Made by a program: the position numbers. Shown in pieces: positions 1 through 6,000 of a DNA stretch of 25,029 nucleotides (positions are counted from its first letter, which is position 1; each line of letters opens with the position of its first letter). This DNA comes from a virus (lineage: Duplodnaviria; Heunggongvirae; Uroviricota; Caudoviricetes). The DNA lies in IMG/VR virus record IMGVR_UViG_2671180435_000002. One strand, given 5' to 3'.

Positions 1-3000
1 TACACTAAATCAGTAAGTTGGCAGCATCACCAGCCTTCTTGAGGCTACCACCTGTTTTCAGGTGTCATTCAGACGTGATTTGCCCCAACAAGTTGCATGC
101 GTGACTATATTAAGACGACTTATAACCACCAAAACATTTGCTTTGCAAGCAAAAACAGTGACCATTGACTCTAAGAAAATTCCGATCTATTGTTAGGGTC
201 ATCAAAGTTACTTAACAGTATTCCGAAATGAAAATACAAAGCAAGCTAATTGTCTTATTAAACATTATTATTGCATTTATATTATTTGAGCTTTTAGCTC
301 AAAAATTTGGTTTGAGTACATTATTTTAAAGCAAGATAAACAATATCGGGNNNNNNNNNNNNNNGGCACTCTAGTTTTTATAATTAACAATTAAACGTCC
401 ATAAAATGTTATTTACTTTTCTTCGCTATTGTCATATCTTAATATAGTGGCTTACGCCACTCTACTTTCATCACATTTTGTACGTTTATGTACTCGCCAT
501 GAAGCTCTTTCATGGCGATTTTTTATTCTTAATCCAAGAACATACTCCCTACCTATAGCAAAATCACTTTTTTAACAAAAGAATAACGTATTTAGGTAAT
601 CATTACGAATTTACCCTATAGGTGCTACTGGCCATTCAATATCCGGTGCAGTTGATGTATCAACACGGTTCAGCAACACCCGATACTTTTTCCAAGCTTC
701 CAGCAACAAGGTTTCTTTCTCCGTTGCGATCTCCAGATCCACAGCATCCTGAAGCGGCGCTATATGCTCACTGGCTACCTGCATCAGGCTGTTTTTTGTT
801 TCTTCCGCCTCCCGGATCCGGAACAGTTTTTCTGCTTCCGTATCCTTCACCCAGGCTGTGCCGTTCCACTTCTGAAACTCCCCTTCCGGGGATAACCAGG
901 TGACATTTTCCGGTAATGAGCCGAGTTCAGAAATAAATAACGCGTCGCCGGAAGCCACGTCATAAACCGTTTTACCCCGATGATCTTCAACGAGATGCCA
1001 CGATGACTCATCACTGTTGAAAACAGCCACGAAACCAGCCGGAATATCTGGCGGTGCAATATCGGTACTGTTTGCAGGCAGACCTGTATGAGGCGGAATA
1101 TATGCGTCACCTTCACCAATAAATTCATTAGTTCCGGCCAGCAGGTTATAAATTTTTATGGTCCGTGCTTGTTCACTCATTCTGAATGCCATTATGCGAG
1201 CCTCACAATATAGTTAAATGCGATGTTTTTGACGGTGTTTTCCGCGTTACCAGCAGCGTTAACGGTGATGGTGTGTCCATGTGAACCAATCGCAACAGAG
1301 TGCGTATGAGCACCAATACCGACAGTATGCGCGTGTGCACCCGCAGATGCTGCTGTGCCGGACAGTGAGTGTGTATGGTTTCCTTCTGAAGATGATTTAC
1401 CTACCCATTGGGAGGTGCCACTGGTTAATGAGCCACTGATACCAACCTGATTAGTCCCGCTAACTTGAGTACTCCCTGCCGGAAACATTCCAGTAGGTTG
1501 ACTCCCGCTATTCGTTCTGGGCCCAGTCTGACTATGTTGGTGGGCCCCAGCTGAACTTGTAGAGCCGCTCAGACTGTGCGTATGCGCCCCGGTGTTATTC
1601 GTGGATTTAGTGCCGTAATCAAACGACGATGTGGTTTTCGTCCCCAAATCCGTACTGGATGCGCTGGCGCTGTGGGTGTGCGATTTAATGCCATCCTGTT
1701 CCTGAGACAATACGGCACGACCACTGGCGGGCTTGCCCTTAATCGTCCAGCCACGCATATCAGGGATCACGCCTGACGGATAAGCGGCTGCAAGTTTCGG
1801 GTAAGCAGATTTGTCAAAAGTCTGCCCCTGCATCAGGGCATAACCAGACGGAACGGTATCTGATGGCCACGGGATTGGTGCACCGACTGGATAAAACTCT
1901 GCAGGAGGATGAGCCGAGGTGTAAAGCTGCGCCCACGGCGACCAGTTTGCGTCGGTCGTATCCCGTCGTGAACGAATAAATGCCGGAGCATGAGCACCGC
2001 TTGTACCACTCCAGCCGATGAGTAACTCACCTTCGCCAACGGCTGTCATCCCTTTCAGGTGAATGATATTTCCATACGCTGTTGGATATCCGTTGTTATA
2101 CACCTCGTATAACTCAAGACCTGCTGCCCCCTGCGTATTGTCTGTCAGCGCGGCTACCCGACCTTTTGAAGCCAGATTAACTGATGATACTGCTGTTCCA
2201 CCTGACGGTAGCGCCCCGATCTCTGATGCCGTTGGCTTATTTCTGGAGTTATAGTCCCTTCGCCAGCCAGGTGAATAATCTGTTCCGTGATTAATATAGG
2301 TAAACTGGGCGTTGGTTGTTCCGCCACCGCTGGATGTGGTCGGAGTGGTAATGCGGATCGTCATCGCTGACTTTATCCCCATTACTTCAATGACAGCTCC
2401 GGCGAGATGAATATTACCGCAGCCAGTATCAGTAATGATTTTATTATTGCCATAAGACCAGGAACCCTTGCACATCCAGTATGGATGGTTAAATGCTCCC
2501 TGAGAATCCAGCCACTCGATAAACTGTGCAGTCGTCCAGTTTCCTGTTGTTGTGCTTACTGACCCACCGAAGGCACGGCAGGCACCAATATTTTTCGTAA
2601 AGGTGTCTTTGCCAGGGATATCCGCACCGTTCTGATCTTTCTGCAGACGTTTCTCAGCATTGTCATTGGCTGCTTTTACTGCCTTTGGCGTTGCCGCCAG
2701 CGTTTCAGACGTGCTGTTGGTCGCGCTGCTTAGCTGGATTATCCCTTTCTGTGCTGTCGTTGCATCCTGTGCGGTGTATTTCCCGTTAGCCAGGTCATAC
2801 GCGGCCTTAACGGCTTTTGGTGTTGCCGCCAGTGACTCGGAAGTGCTGTTAGTCGCACTACTGAGCTGTACTATCCCCTTTTTCGTCGTGCTCGCATCCT
2901 CAAGCGCCACGGCGGATGCAATATCCTCTGCCCGTTTTGCCGCTGTCTCAGCGCGCGTTGCTGCAGATTCCGCCGTACTTTTGCTCTGAGCTGCTGCCGT

Positions 3001-6000
3001 CGCACTACCAGCAGCCTCTGTCGCCTTCGTGGATGCCGTCGTGGCGCTGCCCTTCGCTGCTGACGCCTGTCTGGTCGCCTCATCTTTTGAAGCAGACGCC
3101 GATGATGCCGATGACGCCGCCGAACTGGCGGACGATGCGGCAGCCGTTTTTGAGGATTCTGCACGGGTTTCCGACGCTTTCGCGTTCGTTTCGGATGTCT
3201 TCGCTGCGGAAGCTGACCTCGCTGCTGCCGTGGCCTGCTCAGTGGCTTCGCCAGCCTTCGTTGTGGCTGTTGAAGCGGATGATGCGGCGCTTTCTGCCGA
3301 TTTTCCGGCGGCGGTGGCACTGGCTGAGGCCTGCCCGGCACTTGTTGACGCGGCGCTGGCAGACGACGCAGCCGCTGTTTTTGAGCCTGCCGCAGCTGAG
3401 GCACTCTGTCCCGCTGCCGTTTCAGAAGACCTGGCGTTCGTCTCGGACGTTTTGGCCGCCTTCGCAGAATTTGCAGCCGCCGTCGCCGAGGAAGCTGCGC
3501 TACTGGCGCTTGATGATGCGTTCGTTTCTGATGATTTTGCCGCCTCTTTTGAAGCCGACGCATCCCGGGCTGAGGTGGCAGCTTCTGACGCTTTCGTGGT
3601 CGCGGTGGATGCAGAAGTGGCTGCTGATTGTTGTGACGCTGCCGCATTCGTTTCTAACGTTTTCGCCGCACCGGCACTGGTAGCCGCCGCGCTTTTTGAG
3701 GACTCTGCAGCGGCAGCACTTTTTGAGGCTTCAGTGGCCTTTGTTGATGCCGTTCCTGCGCTGGAAGACGCTGACTGAGCCGACGAAGCGGCCTGTCCGG
3801 CTGACGTGCTGGCTGCACGTGCTGAATCTGCAGCATCAGTCGCATGGGTTGCCGCCTCACGGGCTGATGTGCTGGCATCGCTGGCTGATTTCTTCGCGGC
3901 TGCCGTGTTCTGTGCCACCGCGGACGCGTTACGCGCCACCTCTTCCACCATCAGCTCAAAACGGCGCAGTGCCTCCGGACGGGCATCATCCTCCGTCATG
4001 GCACCGAGAAAATCATTCAGCGTACCGGGTCGGGAATCTTCATACACGGTGATGGTCCCGGCATGTGACGGCGGGAATCCTTCCACCAACAGAATAACGC
4101 TGTACTGACCGTACTCAACGTCCATGCTGTAACGCCCGGCTTCATCCGGATTTTCTGAGGCCAGCGTGTTCACCACCACCGTGGTGCTGTTACGTTTTGC
4201 TTTCAGCTGGATTGTGCAGTTCTGTACCGGTTTTCCTGTGCCGTCTTTCAGTACACCTGAAATCTTTACTGCCATATTCACCCCACAAAAAAGCCCGCCT
4301 GAACCGGCGGGCTGTCATAACACTGTGTTACCTGGCTAATCAGAATTTATAACCGACACCCACGATGAAACCGTCAGTGCGCCAGAGACGTGTTGCTGTG
4401 GCGACCGTCATCACTTCCGGTCAGCACATCGTGCGTTTTCCCCTTATTGTCAGTTACGCGGATATAATCCCCGGAAAAAGTCGACACACGGCTGTAAGCC
4501 ACACCCGCCATCGCATACGCGCTGAACCATTCATTCACGCGCACAGACGGCCCCGCCATCACGCTGAACCAGCGGTTACGCACGGAATCTTCATGCCAGC
4601 GGGTATCGCTGTAACGGGTCAGCTGGCGATTCTTGTCTCCTGCATAGCTGAATGACGTCACCAGCCCCAGCGTATCCGTAAACTCATAACGGTATTTCAC
4701 GTTAATCCCGTTCAGATCATCACTGCCGGGAACGTTGGTCCGGGCATGAAGATACCCCGCGCTCAGCGTGGACTGATGTTCAGACGCCCATGCAGGCGCA
4801 CCGGATACGGCCAGGCAAATGGCTGCGGACAAAATGGCTGCACAAACTTTACGCATAATTACCTCTCGCTTTTCTGCAATAAAAAAGGCGTCATTCCTGA
4901 CGCCATTTATTGGGGTTATAAATATTTCAACGAATACTGATGCCGGAAGCCGCTTTTTTGGTCACAATCACCGTACAGTCGGTGATATTGCCTGCCCCCT
5001 GATTGCCTTTCTGGAAAATCTTAAACTCCAGAGTGACGCTACCACCACCACTAGGCATATCAATAACTGCACTGTAACTACCGGGAATGGCACCTTTAGT
5101 TTCTCTGGATGCGATTAATACGCCGTTTTTGCGAACTTCAAAACCATAACCCGTGTATCGCGTGCCTCCTGGGTTATTTCCGCTCCCCGGATCGTCATAC
5201 GCTATACCGTTAAAAATAATGGGCGGAATAATAATCTGGCGGTCAAAGTTATGATCATCGCTTATGGTGACTGTAACCGTCCCGTTTGGTGTTTCCGTGT
5301 TACCCCACGTACCAGCCTGTTTCGGAAATGATTTGGATACAGCTTTAACGAAGTCACCTCTGACCTGAGTCGCCTCCAGCATGCCCTTAATCGTACAGTT
5401 TTCATTTACCGTGACATTGTTGAGCGTCCCGGCGTTCGCATTCACACTGCCACTGATATCCGCATTTTTAGCGGTCAGCTTTCCGTCCGGAGTCAGGGAA
5501 AATGCCGATGGATTTCCACCGCTGGTAATGGTGGGGGCCGTCAGGCGTTTCAGGAACACGTCGTTCATGAATATCTGATCGCCCTGACCAACAAACATCG
5601 GTTTTGTGTTGCCATTCGCAGGATTAACCATCGCAATCCTGTCCGCCGCCAGCAGCACCTGACTCTGCATGCCGTCAGGGGTGTTCTCAATACCGGCACC
5701 AATACCCGCGATATAAAGGCGTCCGTCCTGCATCTGCTGCAGCTTCACAGCCCACATGCTGTTCAGGTTATTATTTGTATCAACCTGAACCTTCTGTATC
5801 TGCTGAATTGCCGCACTCTGGTCTTCCAGTTTCTTATTGACGGTCTGCGTGATTTCATTGCTGACATCCGTAATGGACGTCCTGATTTCAGCCAGGTCAG
5901 GCGCAAGCTGACCGTTATCAATCTGCGTCCACAGCTCCTGAGCCAGATGGGTTTTCCCTATCTCGCCTTTGAAAAAATCCAGATAACCGGATGCATCATC

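Follow-up and report, generated by a model that had tools for sequence, protein, structure and literature searches.

The side tail fibre gene (stf) described here lies on the minus strand of IMG/VR virus record IMGVR_UViG_2671180435_000002, a stretch of 25,029 nucleotides of Caudoviricetes DNA that is referred to throughout, at its full length, as the window. The genes follow the order J-lom-stf-tfa, with lom (4374..4856) and J (4927..8424) upstream of stf, as they do in the annotations of lambda, PhiR68_2, ST70 and Rac. The gene, its partner and the modules of its product, numbered from the first residue of the protein, are as follows.

611..1192, minus strand: tfa, tail fibre assembly chaperone, 193 amino acids (aa) (Pfam Caudo_TAP, E = 4.6e-44)
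1192..4275, minus strand: stf, encoding the side tail fibre, with 1027 codons and then the stop codon, 1192-1194 (open reading frame map, Pfam)
3994..4275, minus strand: StfN collar-forming domain, residues 1-94 (Pfam phage_tail_N, PDB 9E7M)
2908..3927, minus strand: heptad shaft, residues 117-456 (periodicity, heptad table, AlphaFold2 helix)
3052..3366, minus strand: 105-residue block within the shaft, residues 304-408 (alignment to Ur-lambda Stf)
2635..2892, minus strand: two 44-residue Phage_fiber_2 repeats, residues 462-547 (Pfam PF03406 matches twice)
2206..2634, minus strand: Mu S'-like fibre domain, residues 548-690 (PDB 8JU3 match)
1897..2205, minus strand: fibre segment without a solved structural relative, residues 691-793 (PHROG matches only)
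1195..1896, minus strand: T4 gp37-type distal tip, residues 794-1027 (PDB 2XGF, Pfam)
1378..1533, minus strand: hypervariable patch, residues 915-966, flanked by the descending and the ascending HxH motifs

A single uninterrupted open reading frame (ORF) runs from an ATG at 4275 to give a protein of 1027 aa; an alternative GTG start at 4281 would give 1029 aa (1192..4281). The protein begins with MAVKISGV, as lambda Stf does, and Pfam finds in it phage_tail_N, two Phage_fiber_2 repeats and Collar. An earlier, sequence-only reading of this DNA had identified the gene as an intact Stf with one frame of about 1027 aa and an intact tfa beside it, and had set it against the broken stf of laboratory lambda. 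All of this is borne out: the ORF map gives the single frame, the Pfam domains and the lambda gene order back the identification, and the laboratory lambda gene is indeed split, into orf-401 and orf-314. The tfa gene is complete, its product is 93% identical to lambda Tfa, and its start overlaps the stf stop by 1 nucleotide (TGATG). Three features of a lambda-type Stf are present, namely an N-terminal phage_tail_N/StfN domain, a position after J and lom and before a coupled tfa, and a proximal rod that follows a linker. We conclude that this is very probably the intact stf of a lambda-like Escherichia coli prophage, in the common long form represented by StfR, and a mosaic of known modules.

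The N-terminal module is the StfN domain. Pfam phage_tail_N (PF08400) spans residues 1-134 (E = 1.4e-71), and PDB 9E7M, a 94-aa Ur-lambda tail fibre protein, matches residues 1-94 (E = 1.3e-51), after which a short linker extends to about residue 101. The Ur-lambda virion studied by electron cryo-microscopy and tomography (cryo-EM/ET; Yu et al., Sci Adv 2025, PMC12617516) provides the frame of reference: StfN comprises residues 1-91, twelve copies of which form a collar at the gpV/gpM junction, followed by a flexible linker (92-101), a trimeric proximal coiled coil (102-393), a hinge and a gp37-like distal part, with four Stf fibres per virion. Ur-lambda Stf shares with the window protein the J-lom-stf-tfa locus, the StfN domain (92-95% identical), the Ala/Ser/Thr heptad coiled coil (72-92% identical where shared), the first fibre repeat, a gp37-type tip with HxH motifs, an identical C-terminus and a 93% identical Tfa.

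The shaft that follows the linker consists of 129 Ala, 81 Ser and 42 Thr in 340 residues (74% of residues 117-456), and of 86% Ala, Ser, Thr, Glu and Lys taken together. Its autocorrelation has peaks at each multiple of 7 (z = 7-10.6) and nothing else above z = 1.9, and its Fourier power is highest at 3.50 and 7.00 residues. From residue 117 an AxxAxxS pattern recurs in sevens for about 49 heptads, with a register that is unbroken over all 340 residues; helical heptads reach over about residues 102-460. Of the 49 heptads, 47 have Ala at position d and the other 2 have Val; 35 have Ala at position a, with Lys or Glu in most of the others, and 36 carry Ser at position g. The heptad period, the apolar a and d positions and the continuous register are those of a coiled coil, with a core of Ala instead of the usual Leu, Ile or Val. 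AlphaFold2, run on the single sequence as a monomer, places a helix at residues 98-475 with a mean predicted local distance difference test score (pLDDT) of 67.8. The alternatives, a disordered linker of low complexity or a shaft built as a beta-helix or like collagen, could appeal to this moderate confidence and to a composition that resembles low-complexity linkers, but they do not account for the strict period, the Ala at both core positions or the prediction of helix and not strand. They are further disfavoured by shaft lengths that vary by exactly 15 heptads or by stutter-type steps of +4 and -3, and by the Ur-lambda cryo-EM/ET, which resolves the homologous region as a trimeric bundle (PMC12617516), so that we regard them as very improbable. 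The choice between a coiled coil and a beta-helix, for which the sequence-only reading had proposed a structure prediction, thus falls to the coiled coil on both the heptads and the modelled helix. We predict by analogy that the shaft is the trimeric proximal coiled-coil rod already described for Ur-lambda; it is a known structural element and not a novelty of this prophage.

The sequence-only reading had described the shaft as low complexity and its DNA as GC-rich and repetitive. The richness in Ala, Ser, Thr, Glu and Lys stands, whereas 'low complexity' does not fit a strict heptad. Likewise the G+C content is raised (0.56-0.63 across about 2700-4050, against about 0.47-0.53 in the flanks), but Tandem Repeats Finder detects no more than three arrays, all short and weak, one of them of period 21. 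The repetition lies at the protein level, as the heptad, and there is no reason to mask the region or to dismiss it as junk. Comparisons with StfR, ST70, Z1323HEC0016 and lambda give ratios of nonsynonymous to synonymous substitution rates (dN/dS) of 0.08-0.21 across the shaft, and the protein frame is therefore under purifying selection.

The length of the rod is nearly constant. The distance between anchors on either side of it is 356 aa in the window and in nearly all loci, as against 251 aa in lambda, and the difference is the block at residues 304-408, exactly 15 heptads that are present in the window and most alleles and absent from Ur-lambda Stf. Four apparent shaft lengths of +44 are misses of the anchor pattern. 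Rare alleles differ from 356 by +4 (locus L014) or -3 (L056) residues, in stutter-type steps, and the notion that all length changes are multiples of 7 therefore holds only in part, for the loss of 105 residues in lambda. With 0.148 nm per residue, the usual rise in a coiled coil, the window rod would measure about 53 nm, roughly 15 nm more than that of lambda. It is possible, although we consider the two ideas doubtful even when taken together, that the near-invariant 356-residue rod is a tuned spacer, for example through O-antigen or capsule, or that the tip patch specifies a receptor other than OmpC. If the rod is such a spacer, the 15-heptad deletion in lambda would be a derived shortening. 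In two loci (L057 and L084) the first ~280 residues of Stf are kept and are followed by another heptad-like, ETNAK-rich stretch and unrelated C-terminal domains that end in RQLTGSEH; the switch after about residue 280 therefore marks a second recombination point, within the coiled coil.

Beyond the rod the protein departs from lambda. Divergence starts just past the first fibre repeat, at the equivalent of lambda R393, which is the boundary of the proximal domain in the Ur-lambda structural study (PMC12617516) and has served as the fusion point for engineered lambda-P2 chimeric fibres. Between this point and Collar the window protein has a second fibre repeat, the Mu S'-like domain and the uncharacterised segment (~300 aa in all), where lambda has ~150 aa. 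The fibre repeat of Mu S (PDB 5YVQ, 8JU3) has its counterpart at residues 490-565. The Mu S/S' tail fibre structure 8JU3 aligns with residues 539-723 (E = 1e-69), and over 546-680 the two are 75.6% identical. AlphaFold2 modelling of residues 548-800 from a 29-sequence alignment was confident at 577-682 only, and the middle-domain model returned a single structure from Foldseek, again 8JU3 (E = 7e-19). In the segment that follows, residues 691-793, pLDDT was below 50, and a PDB sequence search with residues 685-804 found nothing. The likeness to Mu S/S' (gp49/gp52) is limited to these internal modules (490-565 and 539-723). The window protein lacks the N-terminus and distal tip of Mu, its own termini being of lambda type and T4 type, and there is neither a chaperone U nor, in the window, an invertible G segment; homology to Mu does not extend to the whole protein.

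The last 234 residues (794-1027) match the T4 gp37 tip (PDB 2XGF, E = 1e-81). Pfam finds Collar (798-845) and five Phage_fiber stretches here; a Gp34_trimer match was rejected because its 18.4 bits fall short of the cut-off (27), and an NCBIfam search gave no matches. All seven HxH motifs are kept, starting at residues 866, 898, 912, 967, 981, 990 and 999, and the C-terminal end, canonically FNYIVRLA, does not differ between the window protein, lambda, T4 and 56 other alleles. Together with a chaperone gene directly downstream, seven HxH motifs around a variable centre and a conserved C-terminus are what characterises a T4 gp37-type tip. The chaperone is of the lambda Tfa type, unlike the gp38 type of T4. 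The rest of the window protein does not match 2XGF, a comparison that covers the solved tip fragment of gp37 only.

The variable centre is the patch at residues 915-966, which is 29% identical to T4 gp37 and 19 residues longer, while its flanks are 82% (before) and 77% (after) identical. It is also unlike the corresponding patches of lambda, PhiR68_2, ST70 and StfR. In the T4/lambda receptor-binding family the specificity region is known and divergence is concentrated there (Magaziner and Salmond 2022, PMC9659904), and the patch is presumably the receptor-contacting head. Receptors reported for such fibres are OmpC for lambda, OmpC or lipopolysaccharide (LPS) for T4, and the LPS core for Gifsy-1 Stf. 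The patch of the window protein is only about 25% identical to that of lambda, and OmpC specificity is therefore not transferable to it.

The sequence-only reading had also considered the protein unusually long, beside about 774 aa for Ur-lambda Stf. The latter figure is right, as the Ur-lambda-type record has 774 aa, but the former claim is not. We collected complete ORFs with a matching N-terminus from 80 loci of IMG/VR, 37 of GTDB and reference records, and restricted the set to the 56 that end in the canonical FNYIVRLA. Their lengths lie between 774 and 1176 aa (median 1076 aa); 33 are longer than the window protein and 22 are shorter. Judged by these ORFs, the window Stf is typical, falling in the commonest length class of the family, and Ur-lambda Stf is a short outlier. 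Laboratory lambda and Ur-lambda are thus atypical, short representatives of the Stf family. StfR of the K-12 Rac prophage (b1372) has 1120 aa. A homologue search with the N-terminal 135 aa was unusable for length, since the best 120 of its 487 matches had 113-237 aa and were mostly partial. These short matches probably fit short-read assemblies that break within the Ala/Ser/Thr shaft, in which case stf would be under-represented as a complete gene in draft genomes.

Close relatives share the whole architecture. The isolated lambdoid phages PhiR68_2, PhiR42_1 and mEp460 have Stf proteins of 1023-1025 aa with the same arrangement and 93-95% identity to the window protein, and PhiR68.2 has been employed as an infective phage in a bioRxiv study. 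In the comparison with PhiR68_2, PhiR42_1, mEp460_ev081 and E. coli ST70 (1023-1025 aa), the proteins correspond from end to end at 95-96% identity, with an identical Mu S'-like domain; only the hypervariable patch is substantially different (30% identity over residues 921-960). Rac StfR is 97-100% identical over residues 1-480, including the 356-aa shaft, and keeps Collar, the HxH flanks and the C-terminus. Unlike the window protein, it has a longer middle (about 481-800 in the window, 17-47% identical) and another tip patch.

Matches spanning at least 80% of stf occur in 636 of 5426 complete E. coli genomes, none of which has an identical gene (at best, identity is 96.9% across 99% of the gene or 98.2% across 94%). 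An exact look-up of the protein, with three choices of start, found nothing in a collection of 15 billion proteins. An identical protein is encoded on another IMG/VR contig (L017). The tip allele is fairly rare, being at least 99% identical in only 25 of the 5426 genomes, and its combination with two fibre repeats is absent from the searched complete E. coli genomes and protein collection and present on that IMG/VR contig. The window protein corresponds to the 983-aa allele of strain Z1323HEC0016 plus one extra 44-residue fibre repeat, or, seen the other way, to the ST70/PhiR68_2 allele with another tip patch. The copy number of the Phage_fiber_2 repeat therefore varies, with 2 copies in the window and 1 in this near-identical allele (L122:3007-5958). 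What novelty there is lies in the particular mosaic and in the tip allele. The locus is a textbook case of tail-fibre mosaicism, with a collar and rod as in lambda, an internal domain as in Mu and a tip as in T4. The gene is of a known kind and its mosaic form is common; the value of the locus lies mainly in correct annotation. Because the natural module boundary coincides with the lambda R393 fusion point, the allele could be used as it stands to provide a tip in host-range engineering, if the receptor is identified.

The shaft DNA also carries three long ORFs in other frames, all within 2871..3778.

2871..3647, minus strand: alternative-frame ORF, 258 aa
2916..3683, plus strand: alternative-frame ORF, 255 aa
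3029..3778, plus strand: alternative-frame ORF, 249 aa

As a control we shuffled the codons of the shaft and recorded, frame by frame, the maximal length that stays open. For two of the frames codon composition fully explains the result, since shuffling gives runs of 248 ± 61 and 229 ± 71 codons and those observed are 248 and 262. The third, an antisense frame, is open for 257 codons where 96 ± 32 are expected, and it is here that a real overlapping gene, such as the plus-strand ORF at 2916..3683 (255 aa), might be sought. Stops in this frame arise in the shaft solely from NCT-A codon junctions (CTA), of which there is 1 against 9.3 ± 2.4 expected under synonymous permutation; none of 2000 permutations was as low. 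The depletion persists when permutation is stratified by heptad position, and it is specific to CTA with no general TpA effect, T-A junctions that do not form CTA being at expectation. The same depletion is nevertheless seen in all other window genes pooled (19 NCT-A junctions observed against 40.5 expected, a ratio of 0.47, beside 1 against 9.2 in the shaft). With this general factor applied, the expectation for the shaft falls to about 4.3 stops, and finding at most 1 has a p of about 0.07. Moreover, 33 of the 58 distinct alleles have 2-4 stops in the frame, and its product would be a Leu-, Pro-, Arg- and Trp-rich nonsense sequence. A genuine antisense gene is thus exceedingly improbable. 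The third frame stays open because NCT-A junctions are avoided, generally in the prophage, and the evidence supports the long alternative-frame ORFs as by-products of codon composition and of this general CTA avoidance, not genes. The sequence-only reading had dismissed them as spurious, and the shuffling, the CTA counts and the stop-bearing alleles agree. The annotated orf206b of lambda is a composition-driven antisense frame of the same kind.

Taken together, the frame is intact, the domains are identifiable, the heptad register is unbroken and the protein is under purifying selection. A trimeric state, assembly into the virion and receptor binding would be expected by analogy with Ur-lambda and T4, and from Ur-lambda (PMC12617516, PMC11338833) it is reasonable to suppose that the side fibres function and confer a second receptor specificity. 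We propose the following course of events. Late transcripts may read through terminator-like hairpins flanking lom, as suggested by Q antitermination in lambda, and Stf and Tfa would be made from coupled frames. Tfa would chaperone the folding and trimerisation of the HxH needle tip. Three chains would make up each fibre, and over residues about 102-460 their alpha helices would run in parallel as a three-stranded coiled coil, about 49-51 heptads long and with Ala/Ala in its core. This coiled coil would zip up along the stretch that separates the beta-structured domains at the C-terminus from the collar domains at the N-terminus. With twelve StfN domains in a ring around the tail at the gpV/gpM junction, there would be four fibres, each with the rod followed by the two fibre repeats, the Mu S'-like domain, the uncharacterised segment and the T4 gp37-type needle. 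The seven HxH motifs should bind metal (iron) ions along the needle axis, and the patch at residues 915-966 would contact the host receptor at the distal end. Such fibres, which in Ur-lambda raise the rate of adsorption, could provide a fast, reversible first contact, and so raise the chance that J finds its own receptor.

A different outcome would be a stf frame that is intact within a cryptic or defective prophage that assembles no fibres, either as a recent remnant or as a reservoir for recombination with superinfecting lambdoid phages, like stfR of Rac. The Rac prophage of K-12, annotated as cryptic, does keep an intact 1120-aa stfR along with tfaR, and related loci include some with a frameshifted tfa or with truncated stf ORFs of 791-948 aa with aberrant ends. 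In the window itself, lom is truncated by a frameshifting 83-base-pair deletion, a sign of some prophage decay, but lom is a non-essential accessory gene and tfa is intact. The window excludes the early region of the prophage; over the head and tail genes, every position from Nu1 to J is filled by an ORF of roughly lambda-like size, although these were not checked individually. The shaft dN/dS indicates selection on the protein across alleles. We therefore consider a defective prophage unlikely, and favour a working side fibre gene. Along with the damaged lom, several further points weigh against that view. The tfa of Z1323HEC0016, the closest relative with the same tip, is annotated as frameshifted, so such loci do decay. 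The tip patch shares just 25-30% of its residues with the patches of lambda and T4. Residues 691-793 match PHROG tail-fibre families only, with no PDB sequence match up to E <= 10, and the monomer model of the shaft, which we take to be trimeric, folds back on itself twice with low confidence, as would be expected of a monomer model deprived of its partner chains. Expression, assembly and adsorption are in any case predictions made from sequence.

The gene upstream of stf also merits a note. The minus-strand lom (4374-4856) is a pseudogene, in which the 83-base-pair deletion lies between CTGGCG direct repeats and shifts the frame, leaving a product of 160 aa that ends in SLAH, against 199-206 aa elsewhere; Pfam Ail_Lom covers profile positions 1-159 of 199. 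Hairpins lie on both sides of it, the second at 4887-4904 on the minus strand, also terminator-like and with a T-run, and the first between lom and stf.

4292..4313, minus strand: terminator-like hairpin with a T-run between lom and stf, conserved in lambda and E. coli ST70

This arrangement fits lom as an independently inserted accessory gene cassette. On the other side of the locus, downstream of tfa, no ORF of at least 50 aa was found in window positions 1-610, and an AT-rich region there (26-36% G+C) contains a run of 14 N at 351-364. Unlike in Rac and PhiR68_2, no pin-type recombinase lies beside tfa within the window.

Finally, some of the loci gathered for comparison (L087-L095 and other short GTDB contigs) are low-coverage contigs of up to about 48.5 kb in assemblies labelled Leeuwenhoekiella, Pseudomonas, Shewanella, Oceanobacillus, Desulfosporosinus and others. 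Nine of all the fetched loci, not matched up with individual contigs, encode a 401-aa ORF, the size of laboratory lambda orf-401. The GTDB contigs in question look like contamination of the assemblies with lambda control DNA.

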